From a virus: a DNA stretch of 64,000 nt. The position numbers were made by a program, and so were the translations under genes. The DNA is taken from positions 64,001 to 128,000 of the IMG/VR virus record IMGVR_UViG_3300021962_008382; one strand, 5' to 3'. The notes under the pieces were generated by a model that was given only the letters and a program-made list of their open reading frames with translations, did not search any database and was not told where the DNA came from. Position 1 is the stretch's first letter; each line of letters starts with the position of its first letter. This document shows, in pieces, positions 15,471-39,773 of the stretch.

Positions 15471-15471
15471 A

Positions 15472-17831: not shown

Positions 17832-17849
17832 GACTTTATTATTTCAACA

Positions 17850-18620
17850 TTATTTACGCCAAACTTCTAAACCATGATACTTATTTAAAATGTCCGGGGG
17901 TAGGATAAAATCCCTAGCCTTGAATTCTACTCGCTTTCTTACATCATGTAGCTTTATACCGATTTCCTGATCATACTCATCCCAACTTGCTTCTACATTG
18001 TTAAAATCATGCTGAAAATAAGGCTCATCAATAAAATTATACAGGGCTTTTAACATTTGCTCAGGTTGTTTAGCTAGTTGCTCATACTCTAAGATAAAAA
18101 GTAAATTTTTTTCTAGACCGGTTATTGCTTGCTTAATACCCACATAAGGAAAACCTACTACACCGGCTTCTGAAAAAAGGGATTCTGCTCTGGAATAAAC
18201 CGAACCTGAAAGACCCCCGGTTACTGTATTAGTTGAGAAAGGATTGCGTCTGTGCGCTAGTTCAAAACTATCCAAGACCCAGTTAATATCTCTAACACAT
18301 ACAATAAATTTAGATTTAGGGTAAAGATCTTTTATAACACCCGTTAAATATGTCCAAGCGCGATTAGTATTAAAAATAATCGGCTTATCAACATCTTGAT
18401 AGAAACCGTCAAACAACCCGGCAACTATATTTTTTCTTCGCTGTACAGGAACCTCTGCTTTCGACCCGGGGCTATCTTGTGTAGCCTCAATTACCCCTTT
18501 TACTAAATTAGCTAAAGGGTCGGTGATAGAGGAATGAAAGCGGGGGTTCTGTCTTAGTATTGAGGTAAGAAGGGTTGACCCTGATCGCGGTAAGCCAGTT
18601 ATAAAATGATATTGTTTCAT
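17850..18620 (-). CDS. PAPS-dependent sulfotransferase (Sulfotransfer_3-like)
   Basis: 5'-PSB loop ITGLPRSGSTLL, 3'-PB motif VCVRD...SF, YEQL. Confidence 0.88.
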   Translation of the reverse strand: MKQYHFITGLPRSGSTLLTSILRQNPRFHSSITDPLANLVKGVIEATQDSPGSKAEVPVQRRKNIVAGLFDGFYQDVDKPIIFNTNRAWTYLTGVIKDLYPKSKFIVCVRDINWVLDSFELAHRRNPFSTNTVTGGLSGSVYSRAESLFSEAGVVGFPYVGIKQAITGLEKNLLFILEYEQLAKQPEQMLKALYNFIDEPYFQHDFNNVEASWDEYDQEIGIKLHDVRKRVEFKARDFILPPDILNKYHGLEVWRK

Positions 18621-19972: not shown

Positions 19973-20498
19973 GTTTCACCCACAATTCTTCAATAATATT
20001 ATTATGTTGTTTTAAATAAGCTTCTACTTCATTTCGCGGCATGCCTACAAACTGATCTTTAAATTCTTTAGAAGGTATGTAATTCCAGTCTAAAATCTCA
20101 AAATCAACACCAAAATAAAAACCTAATCTCGAAGAAGCAGCGCCCTGCTCTTCGCACAGTCTGTTGTGTTTTTTACTAAATAAAAGCAGACCACCAACAG
20201 TTACTGGTCTACGATGAGTGGGATCGTCGTAGAAGTAATCGTGTCGATGATGGGGTACACGTATATCGATAGTAGCACCGTGCTTGCAGACTCGATACAG
20301 TTCTTGCAAGCAATGGAAGTAGCCCTCTCCTAGATGCTCTAATACATGATGGGCTACAACTACTTCGACGGAATTGTCCGGGAAGGGGAAAGGATCTTTT
20401 TCTAAATTAAAACAATAATCTGGATTTTCTCTAGCATCATAATCACAGGTTACGAAACCTTCAATTTTTGTTGACCCTGCACCAATATTAATCTTCAT
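19953..20498 (-). CDS. SAM-dependent methyltransferase (class I)
   Basis: Motif I KINIGAG, FPFPDNSV, HVLEHL, ELYRVCK; start placed at MKINIG. Confidence 0.85.
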   Translation of the reverse strand: MKINIGAGSTKIEGFVTCDYDARENPDYCFNLEKDPFPFPDNSVEVVVAHHVLEHLGEGYFHCLQELYRVCKHGATIDIRVPHHRHDYFYDDPTHRRPVTVGGLLLFSKKHNRLCEEQGAASSRLGFYFGVDFEILDWNYIPSKEFKDQFVGMPRNEVEAYLKQHNNIIEELWVKLVVIKE

Positions 20499-20528
20499 AA
20501 TTTTATCCAAGTAAAAATAACAAATTAA

Positions 20529-20557
20529 ATTATATAGTATATTTTATTAAAAATCAA
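20529..20557 (-). promoter_or_regulatory. sigma70-like promoter TTGATT-N17-TATAAT heading the enzyme operon
   Basis: Minus strand -35 at 20552-20557 and -10 at 20529-20534, 17-nt spacer; AT-rich context lowers specificity. Confidence 0.5.
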
Positions 20558-21903
20558 TACTTTTGAATACCAAGTGAGTGTAATCTTCCAGCACTTACTT
20601 CGTACCAGCCAACAGAACCCCCTACGACAGAAACGGGCGATGATCTTGATGATGACTGGTTTTCCCCTAACATACCGTCGGCGTTATTACCCCAAGCCCA
20701 AGCTGTTCCATTTCGTCTTACTGCTAACGAATGACCGTATTTACCTGCGCTTATTTGACACCAGTCAGTAAATCCTCCTACCACGGAAACCGGTGATGTT
20801 CTATCAGTAGCACTATTATCCCCTAACTGACCATTGGCATTACGACCCCAGGCCAGTAGGCTACTATTACCTACAATACCTAGCGAATGACAATACCCAG
20901 CACTTACTTGACTCCAATTACTAAAGCCTCCTATGATAGATACAGGTGATGAGCGGCTAGTAGTTGTATTATCGCCTATCTGTCCGCAGTTATTCCTTCC
21001 CCACCCCCATGCTGTACCGTTCTGTCTTACGGCTAATGAATGACCACCGCCAGCACTTATTTGACACCAGTCGGTGAAGCCACCCACAACTGATACAGGC
21101 GAGGATTTGCTAACAGTAGTATTATCACCTAGTTGACCGTCAGTAGCACAACCCCAACTCCACACCGTACCATTAGTTCTTAGTGCAAGGGAAAACTTAA
21201 ATCCGGCACTTACTTGACACCAGTCAGTAAACCCTCCTACCACAGAAACCGGGGATGATCGTGGTATATTAGTACTGTTATTACCTAACACACCATAATT
21301 ACCAAACCCCCATGCCCAAAGAGTACCATTCTCTCTTAAACCTAAGGAATGACAGAATGCAGATACCTGACACCAATCGGTAAAACCTCCTACTACGGAG
21401 ACTGGGGAGGATCTATGTAAATTACAATTATCACCTAAATTTCCGCTACCATACTGCCCCCAACTCCATGCGGTGCCGTTATTTCTAACTGCCAATGAAT
21501 GATTAACACCGGCGCTTATATCATACCAGTCAGTAAAACCACCTGCAACCGAAACGGGGGAGGATCTATCATTAACATCGCCCAACCCGAGTTTGCCTCG
21601 ATAATTGTCACCCCACCCCCACGCTTGACCTGACGTACAGTCCTGTCGTAAAATACGGTTGTCTAGAGACATCCAACAACCAGCACCGGCTACTACCGGT
21701 ATACAGAGAGATTGTACAAATATTACTGTACCTACTGAAATACTATTAGTAGCTTGATCAGGTAAATCACCCGTATCAGACACTACTATTGAACGATTAG
21801 TAGTAGCATTGCTAGTTTCAGCAGCGAGTACAACCATCTCGGTTACTTCAGAGTTGGCTGTTAAATTTGTTATACAAGTTTGAATTTCACTGAGTGTTGG
21901 CAT
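20554..21903 (-). CDS. RCC1/BLIP-II-like 7-repeat beta-propeller protein (paralog 6)
   Basis: ~90 aa N-terminal domain plus 7 repeats of ~51 aa: WxWGxNxxGQLGDN..SSPVSVVGGFTDWCQVSAG..HSLAVR.NGT. Confidence 0.9.
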   Translation of the reverse strand: MPTLSEIQTCITNLTANSEVTEMVVLAAETSNATTNRSIVVSDTGDLPDQATNSISVGTVIFVQSLCIPVVAGAGCWMSLDNRILRQDCTSGQAWGWGDNYRGKLGLGDVNDRSSPVSVAGGFTDWYDISAGVNHSLAVRNNGTAWSWGQYGSGNLGDNCNLHRSSPVSVVGGFTDWCQVSAFCHSLGLRENGTLWAWGFGNYGVLGNNSTNIPRSSPVSVVGGFTDWCQVSAGFKFSLALRTNGTVWSWGCATDGQLGDNTTVSKSSPVSVVGGFTDWCQISAGGGHSLAVRQNGTAWGWGRNNCGQIGDNTTTSRSSPVSIIGGFSNWSQVSAGYCHSLGIVGNSSLLAWGRNANGQLGDNSATDRTSPVSVVGGFTDWCQISAGKYGHSLAVRRNGTAWAWGNNADGMLGENQSSSRSSPVSVVGGSVGWYEVSAGRLHSLGIQKY

Positions 21904-21904
21904 T

Positions 21905-23260
21905 TTATATACTCTGCAGTGGGACTGTTGCTATTGTTCTGCCTAGTGAGAATCTTCGACCCGCACTAACTTGGGCCCAGTTAGTAAAACCACCTACAAC
22001 AGAAACAGGAGATGATAAATCTCCTGTAGCATTATTCCCCAACTGACCGTAATTATTATCCCCCCAAGCCCAAGCTGTACCATTGGTTCGAACCCCCAGG
22101 GAATGCCGAAAGCCTGCTGAAGCCCGACACCAATCGGTGAAACCACCTACTATTGAAGCAGGGGTAATACAACAATAATTACCCCCTTTATTAACACCTA
22201 TCTGACCGTAACGCGTGGATCCCCATCCCCAGGCAGTCCCGTTTGATCTTACCCCTAACGTAAAATTATTACCCGCGCTAACCTGAATCCAATCAGTATA
22301 TGTTGACACCTGGGTAGGAGATGAGGCACTAGTGTTACCCCCGTTACCTATCTGCCAGTAATTATTACGCCCCCAGGCAAAGGCAGTCCCATTTGTTCTT
22401 ACTGCTGCTGAATGCGTATGGCCAGCGCTAATATTACACCAGTCAGTAAATCCTCCTACCACAGAAACCGGTGATGATCTATTAGTAGCACTATTATCAC
22501 CTAATCGACCCGAACCGTTATACCCCCAAGCCCAGAGGGTCCCGCCTGATCTTAATGCTAAAGAATACTTGTAACCAGAACTTATTTGACACCAGTCGGT
22601 GAAGCCACCCACAACTGATACAGGCGAGGATTTGCTAACAGTAGTATTATCACCTAGTTGACCACTTTCGTTACTACCCCAAGCCCAAGCCGAACCATTA
22701 GTTCTTACTGCTAAAGTAGAATTTCTCCCGGCGGCCGCTTGACACCAGTCAGTAAATCCTACAACAGAAACCGGTGATGATCTGTTAGTAGTACAATTAT
22801 CACCTAATCGCCCCTGGCCATTGCATCCCCAAGCATACAACACACCATTAGTTCTTAACCCTAAAGAGTGTTGATAACCGGCTGACACCTGACGCCAATC
22901 GGTAAAGCCTCCTAATACGGAAATTGGCGAAGATTTATTTACAGTAGTATTATCTCCTAACACACCATTATAGTTACGTCCCCATACATATGCCTGACAG
23001 CTTACCGCATGCGAAAAGGTTGAAAAATCGCTGTTCCACGCCCCTTGAACAGCGTAGTAATATTTGTTTTCATCATCCACATATACCATTCTACCATTAT
23101 AAGTAGTAGCGTTAGGTAGATTGGTGCAAGTAGAAACTTTAAAAACTGGCTGGCACAGAATAGTAAGTGCGTTTTCTGCTTGGCAGCACTGCAAAGAGGT
23201 TAAGCCTCCTGCGCATAGCAGGCTGCATATTTTATCTATAAGCGGTTGAGTATTAATCAT
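21905..23260 (-). CDS. RCC1-like beta-propeller protein (paralog 5)
   Basis: 7 RCC1-type repeats; Cys-rich N-terminus. Confidence 0.9.
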   Translation of the reverse strand: MINTQPLIDKICSLLCAGGLTSLQCCQAENALTILCQPVFKVSTCTNLPNATTYNGRMVYVDDENKYYYAVQGAWNSDFSTFSHAVSCQAYVWGRNYNGVLGDNTTVNKSSPISVLGGFTDWRQVSAGYQHSLGLRTNGVLYAWGCNGQGRLGDNCTTNRSSPVSVVGFTDWCQAAAGRNSTLAVRTNGSAWAWGSNESGQLGDNTTVSKSSPVSVVGGFTDWCQISSGYKYSLALRSGGTLWAWGYNGSGRLGDNSATNRSSPVSVVGGFTDWCNISAGHTHSAAVRTNGTAFAWGRNNYWQIGNGGNTSASSPTQVSTYTDWIQVSAGNNFTLGVRSNGTAWGWGSTRYGQIGVNKGGNYCCITPASIVGGFTDWCRASAGFRHSLGVRTNGTAWAWGDNNYGQLGNNATGDLSSPVSVVGGFTNWAQVSAGRRFSLGRTIATVPLQSI

Positions 23261-23262
23261 AT

Positions 23263-24666
23263 TTAATCGAATGTAATTCCTACGCTAAGTCTACCACCGG
23301 TGGTTACTTGAAACCAGTTATTGATACCTACAACTGATACAGGTGAGGACCTGCTGGTATTATTGTTTGTACCGAGTTGGCCGTAGTCATTATTTCCCCA
23401 CGCCCAGGCAGTCCCCCCTTGTTGTACAGCTATATTATATCGGCAGCCGGCAGATACCTGACCCCAGTTAGTAAATCCCCCTACCACGGAAACCGGGGAT
23501 GAGCGATTCGTCCCGTATGGACTGCAATTATTTCCTAACTGACCCGAACCACTTGCTCCCCATGTCCAAAGGGTACCGTTAGTTCTCACTGCTGCTGAAT
23601 GATCATAGCCAGCGCTAATATTACACCAGTCAGTAAAACCACCTACCACTGTAACAGGGGATAAGCAACTTACTGTGTTATTATTACCCAGCCTACCTGA
23701 ACTCCCATACCCCCATGCATAAAGGACCCCGGTTTGAATTAAACCTAAAGAATGCTGGGCACCTGCTGATACCTGACACCAGTTAAAAATCCCCCCTGTT
23801 ACGGAAACAGGGGATCGACGACTAGTTGTCGTACCATCGCCTAACTGCCCTCGATCGTTTAACCCCCACCCCCATGCTGTACCGTTCTGTCTTACGGCTA
23901 ATGTGGTGTTTCTGTTGGAGGTACCGGTTCTGTTACCTGAAATTTGACACCAATCGGTAAACCCACCTACTACTGAAACTGGCGATGATTTATTAGCATT
24001 AGTATTGTCCCCCAATGCCCCCTGATAGTTATACCCCCATCCCCAAGCAGTACCGTTCTGCCGTATACCAACAGAAAATCTATGCCCTGCACTAATATTA
24101 CACCAGTCAGTGAATCCTCCTACTACAGATACAGGAGAGGATCTACTAGTAGTACAATTGTTACCTAATCTACCAGCTTCTCCAGACCCCCAAGCATAAA
24201 GGACCCCATTATTACGTAAACCAAGCGTATGCTGACAACCTGCGCTCACTTGACCCCAATCGGTAAATCCTCCTATTGTGGAAACAGGTGACGACCTCGA
24301 TTCTGTACAATTATCTCCGAACTGCCCTACACTATTACAACCCCACGCCCAAACTGCATTATTGTATTGCGCGTCTGTTCTTAAAACTGTACCATCCAGC
24401 GCAAGCCAAGTATTACCTGAACTTACAGCAATAATACCTAACGATTCAACATAATATACCATTCCATCGGGTAATATATTACTACCATAATAAAGATACG
24501 GTAAACTATACTTATTTTCAGCAGTGATAATACTGATGTCGTTTAAGTTGTTACCAGACAAAGCATACGCTAGAATATCGTCAGGGGTATAATCCACCAG
24601 ATTATACGGTCTGCATAATTGAGTATTTAATTTAGATAATATACAGCTAGCATTTACCGTTGGCAT
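23263..24666 (-). CDS. RCC1-like beta-propeller protein (paralog 4)
   Basis: 7 RCC1-type repeats. Confidence 0.9.
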   Translation of the reverse strand: MPTVNASCILSKLNTQLCRPYNLVDYTPDDILAYALSGNNLNDISIITAENKYSLPYLYYGSNILPDGMVYYVESLGIIAVSSGNTWLALDGTVLRTDAQYNNAVWAWGCNSVGQFGDNCTESRSSPVSTIGGFTDWGQVSAGCQHTLGLRNNGVLYAWGSGEAGRLGNNCTTSRSSPVSVVGGFTDWCNISAGHRFSVGIRQNGTAWGWGYNYQGALGDNTNANKSSPVSVVGGFTDWCQISGNRTGTSNRNTTLAVRQNGTAWGWGLNDRGQLGDGTTTSRRSPVSVTGGIFNWCQVSAGAQHSLGLIQTGVLYAWGYGSSGRLGNNNTVSCLSPVTVVGGFTDWCNISAGYDHSAAVRTNGTLWTWGASGSGQLGNNCSPYGTNRSSPVSVVGGFTNWGQVSAGCRYNIAVQQGGTAWAWGNNDYGQLGTNNNTSRSSPVSVVGINNWFQVTTGGRLSVGITFD

Positions 24667-24668
24667 AA

Positions 24669-25292
24669 TTACTCAACTATGGTGATGGCCAACAATTCTT
24701 CTTTAGTATCAGCAGTATCTATTTGATCTGAGATATTTAACTCCCAATCAAAGCAAGATTGAATATACTGATTACCTGCTTGTACAACTAATCCTAGCTC
24801 TTGCTTGGTCAAAGTTAGCCAACCTTCAGGAAATTTCCAATTTACAGTATCACTATTAGCCATTAGTAAGTATTTTTGAACAAAGATATCACGCGCCCCT
24901 CGATTGGTATCAATAGTCACTGTCTTATCTTGAATTGTTGCTGTTGTACCTAAAACTTCTCTTTTATATCTTTCTTGAGCTGCAACTTGTTTTAAATTGT
25001 ATCTCATAGAATCAATCGGTGAGTCATGAACTTCGTAATTAGCTATGACCACATCATCAGTAATGTTCCAAAGCGGGCCATAGTAGTATTCTACAAGCGG
25101 ATTCATTTCCGGTCTAACTTCATCTACACTCATGATTTTAGCATGATCATTAATTATTAATGGTAGGGTATCTGGGGCAGTTCTTGGTAGGGGGTACTGT
25201 ATACCTTGACGCTCTAATGTACCTTGAAACATGCCGCGATTCCAATTCATTGGACCCACCAGCACTCTATTGTCATAAATTACCGCATACAT
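24669..25292 (-). CDS. DUF4376-like putative fibre assembly / adaptor protein
   Basis: C-terminal LKQVAAQERYKRE..G...IDT.R...VNWK..W..LT..EL..V...IQSCF resembles DUF4376 proteins found beside tail-fibre genes; RBS AGGAG. Confidence 0.6.
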   Translation of the reverse strand: MYAVIYDNRVLVGPMNWNRGMFQGTLERQGIQYPLPRTAPDTLPLIINDHAKIMSVDEVRPEMNPLVEYYYGPLWNITDDVVIANYEVHDSPIDSMRYNLKQVAAQERYKREVLGTTATIQDKTVTIDTNRGARDIFVQKYLLMANSDTVNWKFPEGWLTLTKQELGLVVQAGNQYIQSCFDWELNISDQIDTADTKEELLAITIVE

Positions 25293-25310
25293 GTTTTTAT
25301 CTCCTGATAT

Positions 25311-25318
25311 TATTTATT
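25311..25318 (-). promoter_or_regulatory. late promoter AATAAATA in the middle of the propeller array
   Basis: TATTTATT on + strand upstream of the 25292 start. Confidence 0.55.
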
Positions 25319-25327
25319 TAGTGTTTA

Positions 25328-26704
25328 TTATGATATTCGTGTGCTTCTTATTGCTAGCGCATGGTAGTAATGTTGGGGGTCGCTGATGATCGCCCAGTCA
25401 GTAAAACCACCTACAACAGAGACTGGCGAGGATTGGTTGCTAGTACCATTATCTCCTAGACTACCATTATATGACTCCCCCCATGACCATACAGTACCGT
25501 TTTGTCTTAACCCCATACTTTTTCTATAGCCAGCGGAAACTTGACACCAATCGGTAAAGCCCCCTACTACGGAAACAGGGGATGATCTATTAGTAGTACA
25601 ATTATTACCTAGCCTACCTGAGGTTCCGCAACCCCATGACCATGCTGTTCCATTAGTTCTCACCGCTAAAGCATGCGTACTGGCGCTGACTTGACACCAA
25701 TCAGTAAAACCACCTACAACAGACACGGGCGATCTCTTACTTACTATTGTATTATCACCTAATCTACCAGCCGTATTATCTCCCCATGCATAAAGAGTAC
25801 CGTCTTGTCTTACAGCGGCAGTAAAATAACCTGTGCTCACCTGACACCAATTAGTAAATCCCCCTACTACTGATACCGGCGATGATTTATTAACATTAGT
25901 ATTGTCCCCTAATTGACCCTGACCGTTATATCCCCACGACCAAAGTGTACCATCTTGTTTTACACCATGACCTCTTCCGGGTCCGCTCGGTGTCGCGGCA
26001 ACTTGACACCAATCGGTAAAGCCCCCTACAACGGAAACAGGGGATAAAACAACAGCACCGGAACCGGTATTATTACCTAAACCCCCATTATCACGATAAC
26101 CCCATCCCCAAGCAGTACCGTTAGATCTTACACCTAGACTGGTAAAATTACCAGCAGAAACCTGACACCAGTCTGTAAACCCCCCGACCACTGATACGGG
26201 CGAGGATTTAGCTACTTCAGTATTATCCCCTAGTCTACCTCCGACACCGTTACCCCATCCCCATGCTGTACCGTTAGTTCTGACTGCTAGCGTGTGGTTA
26301 TAACCAGCGCTTACTTGACACCAGCTAGTAACTCCTCCCACTACTGATACCGGTGATGATTTACTAACAACAGTATTATCTCCTAACTGACCGCAATTAT
26401 TTCTACCCCAAGCATATGCAACATTATTATAAACAGGATCAGGTGAAACTTGTGACCAAACATTACCGTTACTAAAATATAAACGATCTACATTCTGCAC
26501 AAAGTACAGCCAACCTTCATGTACTGAAACGTTGGGTAAATTGCAGGTTTGATCTATTGTTCTAATTTGACCCATGTTGAAAGTTTGAGCTGCCTTAGCA
26601 AGCTCAATATAGTACATGGTAGAATTAACGTTATCCGCTGCAGCCAATGTATTGGCACTCTCAACAGCAGATTGAAACTGTACTTGTAGGTTGTTTATGT
26701 TCAT
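25328..26704 (-). CDS. RCC1-like beta-propeller protein (paralog 3)
   Basis: 7 RCC1-type repeats. Confidence 0.9.
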   Translation of the reverse strand: MNINNLQVQFQSAVESANTLAAADNVNSTMYYIELAKAAQTFNMGQIRTIDQTCNLPNVSVHEGWLYFVQNVDRLYFSNGNVWSQVSPDPVYNNVAYAWGRNNCGQLGDNTVVSKSSPVSVVGGVTSWCQVSAGYNHTLAVRTNGTAWGWGNGVGGRLGDNTEVAKSSPVSVVGGFTDWCQVSAGNFTSLGVRSNGTAWGWGYRDNGGLGNNTGSGAVVLSPVSVVGGFTDWCQVAATPSGPGRGHGVKQDGTLWSWGYNGQGQLGDNTNVNKSSPVSVVGGFTNWCQVSTGYFTAAVRQDGTLYAWGDNTAGRLGDNTIVSKRSPVSVVGGFTDWCQVSASTHALAVRTNGTAWSWGCGTSGRLGNNCTTNRSSPVSVVGGFTDWCQVSAGYRKSMGLRQNGTVWSWGESYNGSLGDNGTSNQSSPVSVVGGFTDWAIISDPQHYYHALAIRSTRIS

Positions 26705-28059
26705 GAGTCTAAATTATACCTTATACCTAGCACATGGCCAAAACCTGCTGAAACTTGACACCAATTAGTTAATCCCCCTATTACTGATACAGGGGATGAT
26801 CTACTGAAGGCTTGAAGCCCTTCACCTAATTGACCGTAGTTGTTTTGACCCCATCCCCAAATTGTACCGTTAGTTCTTACAGCCGCAGCATTACCAACAC
26901 CTGCATCTGCCTGACACCAATCTGTAAACCCACCTACTACAGAAACAGGTGATGAACTGTCAGTAGTACTATTATTACCTAATCGACCCGAACCGTTATA
27001 CCCCCAAGCCCAGAGGGTCCCGCCTGATCTTAATCCAATACTAAAACTATTTCCACCTGATACTTGACACCAATCTGTAAATCCCCCTACAACAGATACG
27101 GGGGAGGATTTAGAAACAGTAGAATTATCACCTAATCTTCCGTTACTACCGTTACCCCAAGCCCATGCAGTACCATTTTGTCTTACCCCTAGGGAATGTT
27201 GGGACTGACTGAGTGCAGCGCTTACCTGACACCAATCAGTAAACCCTCCTACAACAGATACAGGAGAGGTTCTAGTAGTAGTACTATTATCACCTAAGTT
27301 ACCATTACTATTATTTCCCCAACCCCAAGCAGTACCGTTTTGTCTTACAGCTAAAGCAAAATCGGACCCCCCTGATACCTGACACCAGTTAGTAAATCCC
27401 CCTACTACAGAAACAGGGGATGATTTACTTACTGTAGTACTATCACCTATTTGACCTTGAGCGTTGTAACCCCAAGCCCAAAGAGTTCCGTTTTGTCTTA
27501 CACCTAAAGAGAATCTTATATTATTACCAAAAAACCCCCCGGCACTTATCTGACACCAATCTGTAAAACCACCTACAACCGATACAGGAGATGATCTAGA
27601 TGTTGTAGAATTATCACCTAAACTACCGTAAAAGTTTTGACCCCAGCCCCAAGCAGTACCATTGGTACGCACGGCAAGTGAATTACGTGTTCCTGCTGAA
27701 ACTTGACACCAATCTATAAAATTACCAACAACTGACACTGGAGAAGTTCTTTGTGTAACTGTATTATCACCCAATTGACCGGCATTATTAAACCCCCAAG
27801 CATACATAAATCCTTGAGGTATTTGATTGATAGTATCTATTGATACCCAATTAGTACTATTACTATAATAAATTCCCAACCCTCTAACATAATACATTTT
27901 ACCAGTAGATGCAGATGCCGCAGGTAAATCCACTATAGCATTTACGTGATTTACTTGACCTGCTTTCATTAAGTCAACTGACTTAGTTACAGCTAACTGA
28001 TTATAGGTATTATCGCTAACTTTAGATTGAAGCTTTAAAATTAAATTAGTAATATCCAT
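26701..28059 (-). CDS. RCC1-like beta-propeller protein (paralog 2)
   Basis: 7 RCC1-type repeats, all with WCQ. Confidence 0.9.
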   Translation of the reverse strand: MDITNLILKLQSKVSDNTYNQLAVTKSVDLMKAGQVNHVNAIVDLPAASASTGKMYYVRGLGIYYSNSTNWVSIDTINQIPQGFMYAWGFNNAGQLGDNTVTQRTSPVSVVGNFIDWCQVSAGTRNSLAVRTNGTAWGWGQNFYGSLGDNSTTSRSSPVSVVGGFTDWCQISAGGFFGNNIRFSLGVRQNGTLWAWGYNAQGQIGDSTTVSKSSPVSVVGGFTNWCQVSGGSDFALAVRQNGTAWGWGNNSNGNLGDNSTTTRTSPVSVVGGFTDWCQVSAALSQSQHSLGVRQNGTAWAWGNGSNGRLGDNSTVSKSSPVSVVGGFTDWCQVSGGNSFSIGLRSGGTLWAWGYNGSGRLGNNSTTDSSSPVSVVGGFTDWCQADAGVGNAAAVRTNGTIWGWGQNNYGQLGEGLQAFSRSSPVSVIGGLTNWCQVSAGFGHVLGIRYNLDS

Positions 28060-28062
28060 AGT

Positions 28063-29406
28063 TTAAAATCCGCAACTCTTTCTTATAGCCAAGCTAGAAT
28101 TTCCCCCGCCTGATACATCCCACCAATCTGTATACCCGCCTACCACAGATACCGGTGACGACCGATTAGTAGTACAATTATTACCTAAGGAGTCGCCGTT
28201 CCCCCAACTCCAAAGCGTACCATTTTGTCTTAATCCTAGCGAATGTGTAGAACCAGCACTTATTTTACACCAATCGGTAAATCCCCCTACTACCGATACT
28301 GGTGAAGGTTGACTACCAATGGCACTATTATTACCTAATTGTCCGCTTGCACCTCGTCCCCAACCCCAAGCCGTTCCGTTTTGTCGTACACCTAATGAAA
28401 ACATGTACCCGCCGGATAATTGACACCAATTTGTAAATCCTCCTATTACTGATACAGGGGACGATCTAGTATATCCTGCGCCGCTGTAGCCATCGCCTAA
28501 TTGACCGTAATAATTGTTGCCCCATGCCCAAGCTGTGCCTCCTGTTCTTATCGCTAAAGAATGTTTAAACCCGGTCGATAGCTGGCACCAATCGGTAAAC
28601 CCTCCTACTACGGAGACTGGTGAACTTGTAGATGATGTACTATTATTCCCCAACTGACCACAGTCATTAAACCCCCAAGCCCAAATTGTTCCATTAGTTC
28701 TTAAACCTAGGGAATGAAATCCTCCTGCAGATACACGAGACCAGTCAGAAAATGCAATGATAGAAACAGGAGATGTTCTATTAGTAGTACTATTATTTCC
28801 TAATCTTCCGCTGCCACCGCAACCCCAAGCCCAAGCCGTGCTATTGGTTCGTACCCCCAGGGAATGTTCTCTTCCTGCTGAAACCTGACACCAATCTGTA
28901 AACCCACCTACTACCGAAACAGGTGATGATTTATTTTCCGTTGTATTATCCCCTAATCTACCACACGTATTATTTCCCCACGCCCTTGCAGTACCGTTAG
29001 AACGAACGGCTAATGAATGACAAAGACCGGATGAAACTTGACACCAATCTGTAAAGATTCCTACAACAGATACGGGTGAAGATTTATTTACCGTAGTATT
29101 GTCTCCTAACTGCCCATCGCTATTATTTCCCCACGACCAAACAGCGCTCGTTATACCGCTTACATCGCTTGTCCAAGCAGCCCCGGTGCTAAAATAGTAC
29201 TTAGATTCATTTGTAACGTATACAAATCTACCAGTATTACAAGAAGCGGTAGGCAATGAGGCTTGACATGCAACACTAAAAACAGTACATTTATCATTAA
29301 GCTGACATTCAGAACCAGTTAACTGAAGTATCTCTAATGCAGTTAAATTAGATCGAGTAGCTGCTTGATTTATACAGTTGATTAAATCATTAACACCAAA
29401 AGTCAT
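28063..29406 (-). CDS. RCC1-like beta-propeller protein (paralog 1)
   Basis: 7 RCC1-type repeats; Cys-rich N-terminus. Confidence 0.9.
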   Translation of the reverse strand: MTFGVNDLINCINQAATRSNLTALEILQLTGSECQLNDKCTVFSVACQASLPTASCNTGRFVYVTNESKYYFSTGAAWTSDVSGITSAVWSWGNNSDGQLGDNTTVNKSSPVSVVGIFTDWCQVSSGLCHSLAVRSNGTARAWGNNTCGRLGDNTTENKSSPVSVVGGFTDWCQVSAGREHSLGVRTNSTAWAWGCGGSGRLGNNSTTNRTSPVSIIAFSDWSRVSAGGFHSLGLRTNGTIWAWGFNDCGQLGNNSTSSTSSPVSVVGGFTDWCQLSTGFKHSLAIRTGGTAWAWGNNYYGQLGDGYSGAGYTRSSPVSVIGGFTNWCQLSGGYMFSLGVRQNGTAWGWGRGASGQLGNNSAIGSQPSPVSVVGGFTDWCKISAGSTHSLGLRQNGTLWSWGNGDSLGNNCTTNRSSPVSVVGGYTDWWDVSGGGNSSLAIRKSCGF

Positions 29407-34703: not shown

Positions 34704-35438
34704 TTACGGTTCTTTTCGATTTAACTTGAATATCTTTTTTACTGCATATAATTTTCGATAGAACTGCGGTGTGTCTCCATATGCTTCATTTTTTGTATAG
34801 TCAACTTGAGCGTCTGTACCGGGCCCGTATCCGGCAACAATATCTTTACCGTAGAAAGGTATAATATGCAGTAATGGTTCGCCTGCTTTAATATGAACAT
34901 TGCATTTTCGTTTTGGCGAACATATAAAGTTCGTTACTGAGAATTTTTCATAATCAACAGAACCACTCCAAAGATGTAAATCATCTAGCCAGGTAGCATG
35001 ATATAGCGGGGGTAAACATAATGCAGAAATATTTTTCGAAGTACGTATATACCATGGGCACTCAAACTTTATAACCGTTAGTGGAACCCCATCCTCAGGT
35101 GTAAAGAACCCATCAACAATAGAAGCATCCATGTTTATAGGCGGTCTAAAGCCTCTATCCCCCCTGATTGCTGAACCTATTTCACCAATAACACCTGCTT
35201 TATTTGCAAAAATTTTCATGTCAACCCAAGCTGGTATTATATAACCTAATCGACTATAGTCGATAATGCCAGGGCAATGAGGGAACTTAAACACACCGTA
35301 TTTTTCTATTTGATTCGCTTTAGATTTAGGGGTAACATCCTGTGCTCGTTGTACGGGTAACCGATGATATGTCTGTCTCGATACATCAATAAACTCAAAT
35401 TCAGGTGTTTTTTTCTTCAAAAAATTAAATAATTTCAC
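34704..35438 (-). CDS. hypothetical protein (DUF6065-like), paralog B
   Basis: CPGIIDYSRLGYIIP..D; KFECPW; G.VD; GEPLLHIIPF; paralogous to the upstream gene. Confidence 0.6.
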   Translation of the reverse strand: MKLFNFLKKKTPEFEFIDVSRQTYHRLPVQRAQDVTPKSKANQIEKYGVFKFPHCPGIIDYSRLGYIIPAWVDMKIFANKAGVIGEIGSAIRGDRGFRPPINMDASIVDGFFTPEDGVPLTVIKFECPWYIRTSKNISALCLPPLYHATWLDDLHLWSGSVDYEKFSVTNFICSPKRKCNVHIKAGEPLLHIIPFYGKDIVAGYGPGTDAQVDYTKNEAYGDTPQFYRKLYAVKKIFKLNRKEP

Positions 35439-36166
35439 TTGCGAGATTCTCTCAGTTCATTTGTATAAACCCCGTGTCTCGTACTTTGAGCTATTCGTAT
35501 ACGCTCTATCTCTCGGAATTCTTTTTTACTCATACTACGAATAATAGGTTCTTTAGATATTTTATAAATTTCTCGATGAATTGGTATAGCTACCACTATA
35601 GGTGTACCAGCATTAAGAACACCGTCAAAGTTAGCAGTGTGCCAAATTGCTGGGAAGTTGACTTCTTTTACATATGTATCTGTGTCTACTAAACCAGCTA
35701 GACATGTGAAGTGAGCTTGCTCTACGTCATTAATAATGGGCAGAAATAACGTCGACCACCCGGGCGCGGTCTTTACTACCCACCAGTTAAGAAATTTAAT
35801 TGGTGGTGCCGGGTACCCGGGCGCAGCAGAGCCTCCAATCTGATCAACATTATGAAACTCTACTGACTTGACGGTCGGTCCGTTTTTAGCTTCAATAATA
35901 GCACAAGTAGAGCTAGATCGTATACCAACATCAGCTTGTAACGGAATAACAAAACCGATTGACATTGCGTCAAGTAGCGGCATGCATTTTTTTGCAGTTA
36001 ACCCAGGTCGTCCAATACTATCGATACTATCTGGTAACGTAGGTTTTATCCTCTTAAACCAATCTGGAATGCACTTCGCAGCTGGCTTAGGAGGAAGTAA
36101 TGATCCTTCAAATTCTGGGTGACACGTAAACTCGATTATAGGGGATTTGCGCCATAAATTAAACAA
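35435..36166 (-). CDS. hypothetical protein (DUF6065-like), paralog A
   Basis: IPDWFK, KKCMPLLDAMSIGFVIP, KTAPGWSTLF, GLVDTD, GTPIVVAIP. Confidence 0.6.
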   Translation of the reverse strand: MFNLWRKSPIIEFTCHPEFEGSLLPPKPAAKCIPDWFKRIKPTLPDSIDSIGRPGLTAKKCMPLLDAMSIGFVIPLQADVGIRSSSTCAIIEAKNGPTVKSVEFHNVDQIGGSAAPGYPAPPIKFLNWWVVKTAPGWSTLFLPIINDVEQAHFTCLAGLVDTDTYVKEVNFPAIWHTANFDGVLNAGTPIVVAIPIHREIYKISKEPIIRSMSKKEFREIERIRIAQSTRHGVYTNELRESRK

Positions 36167-36860
36167 AAGACCTCTCCACGAAGGTTATACCTTTCTTTTC
36201 AAAAAAATCATAATCAGCTTTGTAGAACGCTTTAATTCGAGCCGCCTGTTCTGTAGTTACAGTATCATAATAGTCTGCTGCATCAGTGCTGTTCTGTCTA
36301 CCTGCAGAATTATAAGACGGTAAATCTAACAGCGGGACTAATTTGTTATATTCAGCTTCATAATCATGGTAATTAAGTAATACTGTATTATCATTGATAT
36401 ATTCAGTTTGTAGCGAAAGAAGATCTACAGTTGTAAAAAACGCTCTAGATTCTAGAGCAGTTAGATATTCATCTAGAGTAACATTATTTAGTGTGGGTTT
36501 TTCATCGATATTAAATTTCTTTCCCCAAATTAAATGAAATAGCGCAGCGCCTCTTGAATATACTTCAAAGCTTAGTTTAGGGTCGGTACGAGCTTTTTCC
36601 CATTGCGAAATAGAATATCGCCAACCAGATACAAGTCTTTCTATAGGGTCTCTGTAGAATGCGTAGTGGGTTAGTTTACTATAATCTATTTCTGAAAAAA
36701 ACTCTCCCATAACACGCTGTAGCTGATCTTTCTTAATATGTGTCCAGACGCTAGCGTATTTAGATCGACCGTGTTTCGCCTGATATGCTAGCCGAACAGT
36801 AGTAGATCCTGTTTTAGGGATTTCTAAAAATAAACAACCTGTTGATTCGTTAATTATCAT
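36159..36860 (-). CDS. sulfotransferase (Sulfotransfer_2-like)
   Basis: FLEIPKTGSTTV (5'-PSB), RDPIERLVSGW (3'-PB), C-terminal FYKADYDFF. Confidence 0.82.
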   Translation of the reverse strand: MIINESTGCLFLEIPKTGSTTVRLAYQAKHGRSKYASVWTHIKKDQLQRVMGEFFSEIDYSKLTHYAFYRDPIERLVSGWRYSISQWEKARTDPKLSFEVYSRGAALFHLIWGKKFNIDEKPTLNNVTLDEYLTALESRAFFTTVDLLSLQTEYINDNTVLLNYHDYEAEYNKLVPLLDLPSYNSAGRQNSTDAADYYDTVTTEQAARIKAFYKADYDFFEKKGITFVERSFV

Positions 36861-37447
36861 TAAGCTATCCTCTCTCCTAATGCCCAGCTAACCAGTGTAA
36901 CCCGCTTTCCTGATGTAACAGGTCTTACACGGTGTGGCATGAACGATGAAAAAAATACACAGTCCCCTCGTTTAGGCTTAAGGACTCTTGGGGCTTCTAT
37001 ATTACCTGTTGTAACTATTTCGAGCTCACCACCTTCGTATTCTTCTGGATCGCTTAAAAATAATACACTGGATATCTTACGTTGATACTTTTCCCACCCA
37101 AATGCAGCATCCCAATGCCAAGAATAGTGTTGATCAGGGTTGTATATAGTATACTGAAAACTATCAAAACCCTCAATATCTAACATAAAATGATCATGAT
37201 TTACTTTTGCAAGGATTATCCCATGAAGATAAAAAAGCCATTCAGAGTTATTATCACGATGTATCCAGGTAATATCGGAATTGCGAATTTTCGGGTCAGC
37301 ATCAGTAGCTTGATTGCCAACCCCCCCTTTACGAAACTCTTGCAACTCTGCAAGAAATTTAATTTTATCTAACTCTTCTGCTGTATAGCCGTTTTCCCAT
37401 ACTGCAAAACACTCAAATCCCCCGCGGTATTTAGGTATCTGATACAT
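36860..37447 (-). CDS. 2OG-Fe(II) oxygenase (prolyl-4-hydroxylase/PKHD-type)
   Basis: HWD, RKISSVLFLSDPEEYEGGEL, HRVRPVTSGKRVTLVSW (HxD...H...R). Confidence 0.9.
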   Translation of the reverse strand: MYQIPKYRGGFECFAVWENGYTAEELDKIKFLAELQEFRKGGVGNQATDADPKIRNSDITWIHRDNNSEWLFYLHGIILAKVNHDHFMLDIEGFDSFQYTIYNPDQHYSWHWDAAFGWEKYQRKISSVLFLSDPEEYEGGELEIVTTGNIEAPRVLKPKRGDCVFFSSFMPHRVRPVTSGKRVTLVSWALGERIA

Positions 37448-37468
37448 TATCTAATTCACCTCATGTTG

Positions 37469-38545
37469 TTAATTACTTTTAATAGTTACATAGCCCCCGG
37501 GCGGTACACTGACCGGGTATGTCTGTGAGTCAGGGACGTTGCTAGGATTTACTTTCGTTGCCGCAACTACAGATGCAGGTGTTCCTCCTACGTTAGAACC
37601 GGGGAGGGTAATACCTAAAGCGGTACTAGGGTTACCTGCTGCCCCGGGGTTACCTGGTGTATATGATGCCGGATAAGGGTTTCCTGGATTACCTGGTGTA
37701 TATGATGCCGGATAAGGGTTTCCTGGATTACCTGGTGTATATGATGCCGGGAAAGGGTTCCCAGGATTACCCGGAGTATACGAACCTGGGTTCGGAGGAT
37801 TAGAATTACCTGGTGTGTACGAACCTGGGTTCGGAGGATTAGGATTACCCGGTGTATACGAACCTGGGTTCGGGGGATTAGGATTACCCGGTGTATACGA
37901 ACCTGGGTTCGGGGGATTAGGATTACCCGGTGTATACGAACCTGGGTTCGGGGGATTAGCTGTAGGGTTATTCGGGTCTGTCGGGTTGCCTGGGTAGTAC
38001 TGAGGTGGTATATAAAAACCACCGTAGTTATATCCAGGGTAATATGTCCCAGGGTTCGGGGGATTAGCATTACCTGGAGTAGAAGGTGTCGGATTACCTG
38101 GTGTGTATGAGCCCGCATTAGGTGGTGTTGGATTACCCGGTGTAAATGCGCCTGCATTAGGTGGTGTTGGATTACCCGGTGTAAATGCACCTGCATTAGG
38201 TGGTGTTGGATTACCCGGTGTAAATGCACCTGCATTAGGTGGTGTTGGATTACCCGGTGTAAAATTACCCGGATTAGGGGGATTAGTACCGCCTGGTGTA
38301 AAATTACCCGGGTTCGGGGGATTAGTACCGCCTGGTGTAAAATTACCCGGATTAGGGGGATTAGTACCGCCTGGTGTAAAATTACCCGGGTTTGCAGCGT
38401 TTCCCGTACCTCCACGACCTTCTACTGTAATATCATAACGACCGTATGGTATTACATAATTACCTGGAGAGTTAAACGTTGTGGTACCCGTACCAGACGC
38501 ACGCCACGTTTTTTCTAATCCAAATATAGGTGTTTTTCTAGTCAC
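37469..38545 (-). CDS. Pro/Asn/Gly-rich repeat protein, probable fibre-tip/adhesin (GTG start)
   Basis: 14 copies of a 13-aa repeat between Gly-rich flanks (TTFNSPGNYVIPYG..ITVEGRGGTG ... VPPGGYVTI); RBS GAGGT. Confidence 0.8.
   Translation of the reverse strand: MTRKTPIFGLEKTWRASGTGTTTFNSPGNYVIPYGRYDITVEGRGGTGNAANPGNFTPGGTNPPNPGNFTPGGTNPPNPGNFTPGGTNPPNPGNFTPGNPTPPNAGAFTPGNPTPPNAGAFTPGNPTPPNAGAFTPGNPTPPNAGSYTPGNPTPSTPGNANPPNPGTYYPGYNYGGFYIPPQYYPGNPTDPNNPTANPPNPGSYTPGNPNPPNPGSYTPGNPNPPNPGSYTPGNPNPPNPGSYTPGNSNPPNPGSYTPGNPGNPFPASYTPGNPGNPYPASYTPGNPGNPYPASYTPGNPGAAGNPSTALGITLPGSNVGGTPASVVAATKVNPSNVPDSQTYPVSVPPGGYVTIKSN
37658..38374 (-). repeat. 39-nt tandem coding repeats in four blocks (3+4, spacer, 4+3)
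   Basis: PGGTNPPNPGNFT x3, PGNPTPPNAG(AF/SY)T x4, 57-aa spacer, PGN(P/S)NPPNPGSYT x4, PGNPGNP(F/Y)PASYT x3. Confidence 0.95.
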
Positions 38546-38557
38546 TAGAAGACCTCG

Positions 38558-39112
38558 TTACTTCGCGTCTTTCATTGCCAGAGAAACGTATACAGTAGTA
38601 CCACCATCTACGGTAAATAGAGACCAAATATCTACGGCGTTAGCTGTAGTTGTTGCAGGAGGAACAACACCACCAGGGTAGTCAGATGAAGATGGCCAGG
38701 AGTATGTTCTACCTCCAGTTCCATCTTGTACAACTATAGCTGTAACAGCTGCAATTGTATTTGCGCCTGGTACACTTGTAAATGCAAAAGTAGTATTACC
38801 TGTTAGCCGCGTACGTACAACACCTTTTGTAAAATCGATATTAACATTACCGGATACGTTACCGAGATCGACATAATCACTGTTTGCGCCTGCGATGGTT
38901 ATGTTACCCGAACCATTGGTAACTACAATACCTGAACCAGCAGTAAGAGTAGCCTTGTTGAGAGTATTGCCAGTCGAGTTGCCGATTAAAAGCTGACCGT
39001 CAGTATACGTTGTCTGACCGGTGCCGCCTTGCGTAACTGTAAGTGCTGAGCCTAGGTTAGATAGATTTCTACTATTATCAATGACGGTTGTACCGCCAAC
39101 TTGAATTGCCAT
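38558..39112 (-). CDS. tail fibre / adaptor protein
   Basis: MAIQVGGTTVID; GGTGQTTYTDGQLLIGN fibre motif; C-terminal VQDGTGGRT..WP..YPGG..P..T..ANAVD beta domain. Confidence 0.7.
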   Translation of the reverse strand: MAIQVGGTTVIDNSRNLSNLGSALTVTQGGTGQTTYTDGQLLIGNSTGNTLNKATLTAGSGIVVTNGSGNITIAGANSDYVDLGNVSGNVNIDFTKGVVRTRLTGNTTFAFTSVPGANTIAAVTAIVVQDGTGGRTYSWPSSSDYPGGVVPPATTTANAVDIWSLFTVDGGTTVYVSLAMKDAK

Positions 39113-39146: not shown

Positions 39147-39773
39147 TTATTTTTTATCTTTTAACATTTGAACTTCCTGTTTCAAATGTTTAATACTCTC
39201 AATCAAAATAGCGATAAAGTTAAGATAGTTTATACCCTTTGTACCATCAGGCCTGTTTTTTACGACCTCAGGCAGTATTTTTTCAACTTCTTGAGCAGAT
39301 AAACCTAAAGATTTTTCCCCCGAGTCTTTCCAGGTAAAGCTATAACCTGTAATTTGAGATAAGATATCAAGGGGGTTAGTTATCGGCTCAATATTGTCTT
39401 TGAGAGTCACATCGGAGGAAGAATTATAATCAGTAGAGGTTAAAAGACCCGTAGAAGGATTGAAAGTTAATTTAGTGCTGGTAATTTTTACCGCTGCATT
39501 CCCTGAGGAGGCTGCTACGAAGGTAGGAAATACCGTTGAGTTAGATGATGTATCATCTACTACTTTAATGTCTAAAGTTACATTTGAAACAGTGCCATTT
39601 GAAACAGAACTAGATGTAGCAAGTTCATTAATAGCAGCTACTAGATTAGCTTTAGCGGTAGTTGAAAGATTACTAACAACACCTAGTTCGTTATTAATAT
39701 TTGAAAAGTTATTATCCACTTCTGTATTAGTAAGTGGAGAACCTTTTACGTTTCGTAAGACTAGAGTAGCCAT
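39147..39773 (-). CDS. short fibre protein with C-terminal intramolecular chaperone (peptidase S74-like)
   Basis: KGSPLTNTEVDNNF N-terminus; SSDVTLKDNI cleavage motif, G.SAQEVEKILPEVV, C-terminal coiled coil. Confidence 0.82.
   Translation of the reverse strand: MATLVLRNVKGSPLTNTEVDNNFSNINNELGVVSNLSTTAKANLVAAINELATSSSVSNGTVSNVTLDIKVVDDTSSNSTVFPTFVAASSGNAAVKITSTKLTFNPSTGLLTSTDYNSSSDVTLKDNIEPITNPLDILSQITGYSFTWKDSGEKSLGLSAQEVEKILPEVVKNRPDGTKGINYLNFIAILIESIKHLKQEVQMLKDKK

Follow-up and report, generated by a model that had tools for sequence, protein, structure and literature searches.

The window analysed here is a 64,000-nucleotide stretch of the genome of a T4-like phage of 159 kb (positions 64,001 to 128,000 of the IMG/VR record IMGVR_UViG_3300021962_008382). 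Between positions 34704 and 38545, the minus strand carries five ORFs, with the neighbouring ones overlapping or abutting. As originally predicted, a gene for a Pro-rich repeat protein (REP; 37469..38545) is followed in one operon by those for an oxygenase (OX; 36860..37447), a sulfotransferase (ST; 36159..36860), and two proteins previously described as paralogous unknowns (U1, 35435..36166, and U2, 34704..35438). REP has a GTG start codon and a ribosome-binding site, and the counts of promoters and terminators at the locus are not above those in shuffled sequence. The module extends upstream to a short fibre protein gene on the same strand (38558..39112), which has PHROG tail-fibre matches and encodes, in its C-terminal ~110 amino acids (38561-38890), a conserved fibre-end domain denoted TFc. 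The module is composed of the fibre C-terminal domain, REP, OX, and two DUF6065 (dUTPase-fold) proteins; OX, U1, and U2 are core genes, and ST is an accessory one.

The REP-OX cassette is known from dozens of uncultured phages. REP lies ahead of OX in 62 of the 63 scorable clusters and, given this identical order, the linkage of the genes is not due to chance. Most of the cassette loci were sampled via U1, and relatives of the cassette were reached through OX and U1; scans with REP alone or U2 alone as the query returned zero relatives. A tblastn search against cultured phages detected no REP homologue, and literature searches found no paper on such a cassette, on fold-back fibres, or on hydroxyproline in phage fibres.

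REP consists of 358 amino acids, including 90 Pro, 58 Gly, and 56 Asn, and its gene contains tandem arrays with a 39 bp unit; the previously reported PGSYT and PASYT motifs are indeed present, in five and three copies, respectively. The protein starts with an N-cap (residues 1-48; 38402..38545), which is conserved in homologues and includes a putative docking peptide and one half of a predicted jelly-roll domain. Next come arm A (residues 49-168; 38042..38401), consisting of 13-residue repeats with nine [FY][TY]PG motifs, a tip (residues 169-182; 38000..38041) that is aromatic, non-repetitive, and hypervariable in the family, and arm B (residues 183-302; 37640..37999), which mirrors arm A and also carries nine motifs. 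The C-cap (residues 303-358; 37469..37639) contributes the remaining half of the jelly-roll. The initial view of REP as collagen- or extensin-like had to be abandoned: the longest Gly-X-Y run comprises three triplets, PF01391 shows no match, the plant extensin motif SPPPP is absent, and Pro runs do not exceed two residues. Extensin_1 matches in 2 of 35 homologues are probably compositional. Judging by its sequence, REP is neither a collagen nor an extensin, and its repeats constitute two mirror-matched arms. Nor is proline the defining residue of the family: the arms, which range in length from 41 to 348 amino acids, contain 1-36% Pro and always at least 10% Asn, and one subclade has nearly Pro-free arms. 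X-Pro-Gly was considered as a universal target and rejected because the arms of 11 homologues contain only 0-1 copies. At least two Cys residues are present in 17 of 38 tips.

Across 66 REP homologues, the lengths of the two arms are tightly correlated (rho 0.98), and the non-repeat tip is central in 38 of 40 homologues; the tip finder missed two proteins (L112 and L152). All nine pairs of homologues with 80-97% identical caps shift both arm lengths in the same direction. Four near-identical pairs differ mostly in the length of one arm, which shows that the matching can be broken or mis-assembled. In the AF2 model, bridges near the base of the stalk (49/302, 52/299, 55-56/295-296) define the register i+j=351, the centre of which is the Gly175/Gly176 turn. 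In this register, the aromatic motifs lie opposite each other in 9 of 9 cases (7 of 9 in the next-best registers), and an irregular 21-residue gap is mirrored between the arms. The mirror centre predicted from the caps falls inside the tip in 22 of 22 family members. Cap-anchored pair information amounts to 0.102, compared to a mean of 0.050 and a maximum of 0.084 in 200 swapped-partner controls; more than ~20 residues away from the caps, it is at the background level, probably due to bulges that shift the register. Beyond ~12 residues from the caps, the arms are unresolved in the AF2 model (pLDDT 39-48). From the matching seen in the sequences, we infer that the arms most likely form a two-stranded antiparallel stalk. 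The chain would run out along arm A, turn at the tip, and return along arm B, with Gly-Pro, Asn-Asn, and aromatic-aromatic pairing, and, with extended arms, would hold the hypervariable tip at a distance of ~35-40 nm. The adhesin looks like an apparently undescribed fibre design, a single chain with a pair of matched arms, a tunable length, and a tip that varies.

The conserved N- and C-caps are predicted to co-fold as a single domain (pLDDT 86-97 over residues 21-50 of the N-cap region and 88-97 in the C-cap). Immediately ahead of the REP gene, TFc closes fibres of widely varying length, up to 1365 amino acids. The ESMFold2 complex of three TFc chains and one REP chain scored 0.64 (best control, 0.00), a mark that 58 of 80 solved pairs attained, as did 2 of 110 mismatched ones, although these counts transfer to the present case only roughly. 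The contact agreement in this model is at least 37% and the partner pLDDT is at least 58; the predicted REP interface involves residues 5-19 and 34-38 of the N-cap and residues 331-340 of the C-cap. Accordingly modelled, TFc is a predicted trimeric docking platform, and it appears likely that REP docks 1:3 on the fibre trimer encoded upstream, with one chain capping the trimer via the joined caps, like gp38 on gp37. The gene order, the predicted docking, and the cap fold matches jointly make the earlier assignment of the repeat protein to the fibre tip a probable one.

In Salmonella phage S16, gp38 (PDB 6F45) is a monomer on the end of the gp37 trimer (PMC6851490). REP resembles gp38 as a single adhesin predicted to sit on a trimeric fibre end and in its putative axial extensions, which carry hypervariable distal loops in gp38 and a hypervariable tip in REP. 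However, gp38 attaches by a three-Trp helical bundle and contains a 10-helix polyglycine sandwich, whereas REP, with its two long Pro/Asn/aromatic arms, is predicted to attach by the jelly-roll and the N-terminal peptide; the REP N-cap includes no helix, and the protein, with 16% Gly, lacks polyglycine motifs. We know of no enzymes that modify gp38. Structure matches of the REP caps are middling (Z 5-6), and gp38 is not among the best 50 in VIA-align, which does not exclude it. The predicted topology, a discontinuous TNF-like cap, matches 7ypx, 7nx3, and 9d93 (Z 4.8-5.5), but unrelated sandwiches score equally well. The first of these is the fibre protein gp24 of cyanophage Pam3 (PDB 7YPX; PMC9608196), in which N- and C-terminal segments form a TNF-like jelly-roll around an insert, as is predicted for REP (Z 5.3, rmsd 3.1, 79 aligned residues, 20% identity); the ALK extracellular domain (7NX3) has the same discontinuous topology (Z 4.8). 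REP shares an N-terminal motif with the Pam3 gp24/ALK/Gly_rich_2 group (HHalign probability 92, 12 columns). In that group, a glycine-rich helix bundle forms the insert, in contrast to the two-arm stalk of REP, and Pam3 gp24 is trimeric whereas REP is predicted to be monomeric. The Gly_rich_2 profile (PF21722) matched none of 35 REP members, Foldseek found nothing with the REP model, the TFc profile had no match among PDB sequences, and the ESM Atlas yielded only leads below 0.9, Gly_rich_2 among them.

OX belongs to PF13640 (E 1e-19) and contains the HxD..H signature of 2OG oxygenases noticed originally, with the DSBH-type triad H111-x-D113...H172 and the 2OG-binding R182 invariant. In all 63 cassette OX, R55, Y108, R123, and W188 are invariant as well; these correspond to the four residues that surround the target proline in PHD2 (R252, Y310, R322, W389) and CrP4H (PMC2847220, PMC4396695), an equivalence derived from the 5c5t alignment, the triad spacing, and these two papers rather than from structural superposition. 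OX shares the fold, the metal triad, and the four proline-binding residues with these enzymes and with the P4H of chlorovirus PBCV-1 (PDB 5C5T) but is a bacteriophage protein without a signal peptide, and its gene is linked to one for a putative fibre-tip protein. The PBCV-1 enzyme acts on viral Pro-rich repeats. The best PDB sequence scores for OX come from PiuC/YbiX PKHD-type hydroxylases (E 2e-17); the score against the NCBIfam PiuC/YbiX equivalog is 64.1 bits, below the cut-off of 143, and PiuC has Phe and Thr at the positions of Y108 and R123. The cassette OX form one clade (SH-aLRT 98 in a quick tree without bootstrap). Outside the cassette, 52-53 of 53 homologues retain the P4H signature, which speaks to the chemistry of the family and not to REP as the substrate. 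The retention of the four proline-binding residues along with the separate OX clade makes hydroxylation of REP plausible, and OX is probably a prolyl 4-hydroxylase that would modify REP prolines. The prolyl-4-hydroxylase assignment made initially is thus upheld by the residue signature and by the clade tied to the REP gene, and is weakened by the one subclade in which the REP arms are nearly Pro-free.

ST is a member of Sulfotransfer_2 (PF03567; E 5e-10, 40.4 bits against a gathering threshold of 22), with both PAPS-binding motifs intact (P15, K16, G18; F68-R70, P72, and S78 invariant) and no match among PDB sequences. This family assignment agrees with the original prediction, as does the placement of the sulfotransferase from the other cassette (17850-18620) in a different family, Sulfotransfer_3. 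What failed is the notion of ST as a dedicated core enzyme: ST is found in 8 of 53 cassettes, and the usual second enzyme, present in 35 of 53, is a PF11397/GT60 GlcNAc transferase, which is absent from the genome studied here. Furthermore, the ST family occurs at 14 distinct loci without a REP gene; together with the 8 of 53 cassettes, this is, for ST, the lack of linkage to repeat genes that the original prediction had itself named as its refutation. Along with Ser/Thr peptide transferases, GT60 includes the Skp1 hydroxyproline GlcNAc transferase (PMC8724618). The pairing of a P4H-type enzyme with a PF11397 transferase in most cassettes resembles the protist Skp1 pathway (PhyA P4H, then Gnt1 GT60), except that the modified protein would be a structural repeat protein of a phage and that the genome analysed here has ST in place of GT60. 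The second enzyme, in most cases the GlcNAc transferase and here ST, would decorate the hydroxylated product. Any action of ST on REP is a tentative proposal, and direct sulfation of hydroxyproline by ST seems unlikely.

U1 and U2 both match phrog_7084 (E 2e-45 and 5e-18, respectively) and are 27% identical over 91 amino acids, so the paralogy recognized earlier stands; they are no longer unknowns, being assignable as DUF6065/dUTPase-fold proteins related to Syn9 gp43. U1 itself scores 16.2 against Pfam DUF6065 (PF19541), below the cut-off of 26.6, and this domain is present in most of the 120 best U1 homologues. The U1 fold is dUTPase-like (Foldseek E 3e-4; 1dun Z 10.2, rmsd 4.0, 119 aligned residues), with dUTPases in all of the top 11 structure matches and no Pfam dUTPase match. 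Trimeric dUTPases have five catalytic motifs, including a motif 2 with Arg-Ser, a motif 4 with Gln, and a motif 5 rich in Gly. In an alignment of U1 read by eye, only a motif-3-like stretch was recognizable, and the motif 2 Arg-Ser, the motif 4 Gln, and motif 5 were missing; Cys61 and Asp66 are invariant. Our guess is that U1 and U2 are not dUTPases and that their most likely role would be in the maturation of the adhesin, as a Cys-dependent chaperone or partner. A literature search on DUF6065 found no paper. The same Cys-bearing dUTPase-fold family is represented, by gp43, in the dioxygenase/halogenase cluster of Syn9. Iyer et al. 2010 predicted hydroxylation followed by sulfation of collagen-like or tail-collar proteins (PMC2938197). 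Unlike the Syn9 cluster and the bacterial hydroxylase-sulfotransferase operons, the present cassette combines one oxygenase with one candidate substrate.

We estimate at roughly 0.52 the probability that the genes of this locus produce and modify an adhesin of the tail-fibre tip, through docking, fold-back, hydroxylation, decoration, and U1/U2-dependent maturation. The likely purpose would be a stalk that is stiffer, protease-resistant, or surface-tuned. With respect to the arms, it is quite improbable that they are disordered tethers or a solenoid, with the equal lengths and shared periods produced by inter-arm gene conversion: low arm pLDDT, modest mirror correlations of composition (|r| ~0.2), and the single period often common to both arms fit such an origin, but the arms are often unlike in sequence while equal in length (e.g., L135, L212, L300), conversion would not yield an irregular gap mirrored in reverse order, and the mirror centre falls on a Gly-Gly turn. 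If REP is the OX substrate, the target might still be Asn or aromatic residues, or no more than one or two of the cap or tip prolines, instead of the arm prolines. Asn alone reaches at least 5% in all 40 arm sets, Tyr-Asn is the most frequent arm dipeptide in 37 of the 40, Cys-Pro is present in 14 of 38 tips, and the Pro-poor L165, L310, and L320 retain OX, with W61 replaced; L165 keeps both OX and GT60 with 3 Pro per 356 arm residues. Such a target is nevertheless unlikely given that OX retains all four proline-positioning residues and that Asn hydroxylases fall into different structural families; the conservation of Asn in the arms would follow from Asn-Asn pairing across them.

The scheme proposed at the outset, an extensin/collagen-like pathway with OX hydroxylating prolines of the repeats and a dedicated ST sulfating the resulting hydroxyproline, draws on the ST gene being flanked by OX and U1 in this cassette and in three other clusters, on the intact PAPS motifs and an APS-kinase-like gene in the genome, and on the hydroxylate-then-sulfate precedent proposed for other bacterial operons (PMC2938197). 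GT60 is missing from 4 of the 8 ST cassettes, so ST does not depend on the GT60 sugar. We nonetheless consider this pathway doubtful, in view of the lack of a collagen or extensin pattern in REP and the sporadic, often REP-less occurrence of ST. Moreover, characterised Sulfotransfer_2 enzymes act on sugars, the PHROG label of ST is galactose-3-O-sulfotransferase, and the genome encodes several glycosyltransferases. Finally, OX, U1, U2, and ST could act elsewhere, on a host protein, a small molecule, a surface glycan, or a nucleotide, with their genes hitch-hiking in a hypervariable tail region. Auxiliary genes of phages often encode related oxygenases, in a variety of contexts, no oxygenase is annotated next to the halovirus U1 homologues, and Iyer et al. 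read the Syn9 cluster, including its dUTPase-fold protein, as one for secondary-metabolite synthesis (PMC2938197). Yet one OX clade is linked strictly 1:1 with REP across phages that differ in flanking genes, Gly-rich adhesin-like genes lie beside 19 of 38 distant OX clusters, and Syn9 gp43 and the halovirus homologues have Gly-rich adhesin-type genes no more than a few genes away, which renders independent action of the four proteins improbable compared with the tailoring of the adhesin.

Among the genes of aquatic phages that still lack an explanation, those for 2OG oxygenases rank with the most common, and they are mostly filed as auxiliary metabolic genes. Possibly, the cassette represents a widespread phage class of single-chain, length-tunable, fold-back fibre tips equipped with a prolyl hydroxylase and interchangeable GlcNAcylation/sulfation enzymes. 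If so, bacteriophage virions would contain a hydroxyproline system, with a stalk of ~13-110 nm when extended and a Gly-Pro/Asn-Asn/aromatic pairing code, which would provide a role for fibre-linked phage oxygenases and DUF6065. The cassette is a minimal case, in which a single oxygenase and a single candidate substrate are accompanied by two conserved partners and by a second enzyme that can be swapped, such that hydroxylation by phages of their own fibres is testable with five genes in E. coli. One of the conserved-order clusters (L374) is a prophage-like region in an Undibacterium genome, and Undibacterium sp. Rencai35W is thus a possible cultured lysogen for study.

The 158,915-bp virus record, of which the window spans positions 64001-128000, carries T4-like head, neck, sheath and baseplate genes, and the five-gene cassette is located on the minus strand in the tail-fibre region. 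All five ORFs of the original prediction are present at the locus. The repeat protein (REP; 37469-38545) is followed by a 2OG oxygenase (OX; 36860-37447) and a sulfotransferase (ST; 36159-36860), identities that are borne out by matches to PF13640 and PF03567, respectively, and by two DUF6065 proteins, U1 (35435-36166) and U2 (34704-35438), each of which matches phrog_7084 and which are indeed paralogous (27% identity over 91 residues). The gene just upstream of REP (38558-39112) encodes a fibre C-terminal domain (TFc), and directly upstream of it, a short protein (39147-39773) contains a Peptidase_S74 intramolecular chaperone domain. The interpretation put on this arrangement, a pathway that hydroxylates and sulfates the repeat, stands in part: a dedicated enzyme of the prolyl 4-hydroxylase (P4H) type is retained, whereas sulfation is an optional extra. 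The cassette is best read as encoding a tip adhesin that folds back on itself, together with its own enzyme of the P4H type and two DUF6065 partners.

Scans with OX, U1 and U2 yielded about 330 loci that form 69 clusters at 90% U1 identity, 6 of them too incomplete for scoring. The predicted linkage of the repeat gene to the oxygenase held, with the same order in 62 of the 63 scorable clusters, where a REP homologue lies upstream of OX; in the remaining one, it follows U1. The conserved TFc domain (110 residues; here, 38561-38890) is nearly always located before REP. Because this order and the preceding TFc recur across the clusters, we consider TFc, REP, OX, U1 and U2 to be the core of the module. 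T4-like marker genes were found near 38 of the 69 clusters, and in an Undibacterium genome, the module lies in a prophage-like region, adjoining SU10-type adaptor genes. Of the 53 clusters whose downstream DNA is long enough, a PF11397/GT60 GlcNAc transferase is encoded in 35 and the sulfotransferase in 8, with both present in 4 of these 8; no GT60 was found in this genome. Arms are longer in the cassettes that encode GT60 (both arms together, median 400 residues vs 253; 42 cassettes, uncorrected for kinship). At one locus (L088:286-5200, in its own coordinates, as for all relatives), four REP paralogues whose tips differ are arranged in tandem and share a single OX-U1-U2 set, and several other loci carry two paralogues. 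In one subclade, an unassigned family of 200-250 aa without a Pfam match lies between REP and ST/OX (L003:4550-5293, L084:3909-4664, L001:381-980).

REP contains 90 prolines among 358 residues and is arranged as 13-residue units. It had been likened to collagen and extensin; by sequence, it is neither, because Gly-X-Y runs do not exceed three triplets and Ser-Pro4 is absent. What the REP homologues have in common is an N-cap and a C-cap, each about 50 residues long; between these, they diverge freely. In the AlphaFold2 model, the two caps form a single beta-sandwich (pLDDT about 90-97), and most of the middle is unresolved. The discontinuous TNF-like topology of the cap domain resembles those of the Pam3 fibre protein gp24 and ALK, with middling Z scores (5.3 and 4.8, respectively). 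The plan of the middle is fixed, namely, a repeat arm, a non-repetitive aromatic tip and another repeat arm, with the tip central in 38 of 40 proteins. The arms range from about 40 to 350 residues, and their lengths correlate (rho 0.98; 66 distinct proteins). In pairs with 80-97% identical caps, both arms shift in the same direction (9/9, although two of the nine may represent one event). In four near-identical pairs, the length change is mostly in one arm, which may reflect assembly collapse or transient variants.

At the stalk base of the model, beta-bridges join residues 49/302, 52/299 and 55-56/295-296, which sets the register at i+j=351. Extending this register, which comes from the base alone, along the full chain places every one of the nine aromatic-Thr/Tyr-Pro-Gly motifs in arm A opposite one of the nine in arm B, compared with 7/9 in the next-best registers, and an irregular 21-residue gap is mirrored in both arms. 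The mirror centre falls between Gly175 and Gly176, and the commonest facing pairs are Gly-Pro (19), Asn-Asn (18), Pro-Pro (14) and Pro-Gly (13). Across the family, in 22 of 22 proteins the centre predicted from the caps lies inside the tip. Among cross-arm pairs, Asn-Asn shows the strongest enrichment, and none of the 200 swapped-partner controls reaches the observed pair information; the signal weakens once the distance to the caps passes about 20 residues, and mirror correlations at the composition level are modest. Arm A and arm B match, and from this matching, we infer a two-stranded fold-back stalk. With 3.1-3.4 A per residue, such a stalk would here measure about 35-40 nm. An 870-aa REP (L112:2737-5349) shows an apparent internal duplication of tip-like segments, which seems to imply either additional turns or branching of the stalk; in another (L152:80-1465), no unique tip is detectable and the start of the C-cap is duplicated. 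At L006, L007, L008 and L013, a protein whose core is glycine-rich and whose caps resemble those of REP adjoins a sister oxygenase; such proteins may be intermediate between REP and the Gly_rich_2 adhesins.

Against 0.00 for the best control, ESMFold2 modelling of three TFc chains with one REP gave 0.64 (median of three runs). In calibration, 58 of the 80 solved pairs and 2 of the 110 mismatched ones attained this mark, counts that are only rough for this job. Contact agreement between runs was at least 37% and partner pLDDT at least 58. The predicted interface on REP comprises residues 5-19, 34-38 and 331-340, so both caps would be involved in docking. The model supports binding of REP to a TFc trimer; it shares the 3:1 stoichiometry of the S16 gp37-gp38 arrangement (PMC6851490) but consists of different domains. 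TFc has no sequence match in the PDB.

The best PDB scores of OX are to PiuC, followed by chlorovirus and algal P4Hs, and OX scores under the PiuC cut-offs. In PHD2 and CrP4H, four residues surround the proline to be hydroxylated (PMC2847220, PMC4396695); their equivalents in OX, R55, Y108, R123 and W188, are invariant in 63/63 cassette enzymes, whereas PiuC lacks two of them. The cassette enzymes form a single clade (SH-aLRT 98, quick tree). When OX alone was used in the scan, the cassette was present in the three best clusters and absent from the other 40; 19 of 38 examined non-cassette clusters adjoin glycine-rich adhesin-like genes instead. Non-cassette homologues carry the four-residue signature too, which therefore marks chemistry rather than substrate. 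In one subclade, OX and GT60 are kept and arm proline is nearly gone (3 in 356 residues in L165); Asn is universal in the arms. We assign hydroxylation of REP prolines by OX a probability of about 0.6.

Sulfation of the repeat fares less well. ST keeps both PAPS motifs, and an APS-kinase-like gene above the Pfam cut-off (G000:C1:43510-43962 in whole-record coordinates, outside the window) could be the PAPS source for both sulfotransferases. The expected linkage of ST to the repeat gene was not upheld: its family occurs without REP at 14 distinct loci, mostly amid other fibre genes, and ST is therefore a mobile accessory gene. Characterised Sulfotransfer_2-family members sulfate sugars. ST may act on REP, although this is less likely than not, and direct sulfation of hydroxyproline is unlikely. 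At L356, L359 and L338, a cluster of three Sulfotransfer_2-family paralogues lies among small fibre genes, immediately ahead of the neck genes.

U1 is modelled with a dUTPase-like fold; most of the catalytic motifs are missing, and a Cys and an Asp are invariant. U2 matches Syn9 gp43, a protein consistent with the Cys-bearing member of the dUTPase fold that Iyer et al. 2010 pointed out. Homologues in haloarchaeal viruses are three genes away from the glycine-rich adhesin and have no annotated oxygenase as a neighbour, and Gly_rich_2 genes occur close to Syn9 gp43; on the basis of these neighbourhoods, a role of U1 and U2 in adhesin maturation is proposed with low confidence. The DUF6065 homologue of Hafunaviridae haloviruses (L372:5905-6738), convergent with the adhesin operon and represented in 49 cultured records, offers a tractable knockout system. 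For each part of the cassette there is a precedent: adhesins of the gp38 type, a viral P4H, the P4H-GT60 pathway of Skp1 and, from Iyer et al., the prediction that hydroxylation is followed by sulfation. Among the open-access papers searched, none on the REP family, DUF6065 or hydroxyproline in phage fibres was found.

In the first cassette (13799-26704), five RCC1-repeat propeller genes (20554-29406), accompanied by a DUF4376 gene, are followed by genes for a methyltransferase, a TPR-type protein, a Sulfotransfer_3 enzyme, GT2-like and GT9-like proteins and a NUBPL/Mrp-type ATPase. Because its sulfotransferase (17850-18620) is of the Sulfotransfer_3 family, vs PF03567 in ST, the two cassettes use different families, as originally stated. 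The C-terminal half of the 13799-14722 product, which has no match in Pfam or NCBIfam, resembles by eye a degenerate APS-kinase/P-loop domain. Outside the window, inspection by eye revealed another cluster of glycosyltransferase-like and sugar-pathway genes amid replication genes (G000:C1:7015-15986) and a QueC, QueD, QueE, FolE and QueF-like set for 7-deazaguanine DNA modification (G000:C1:51837-59797).
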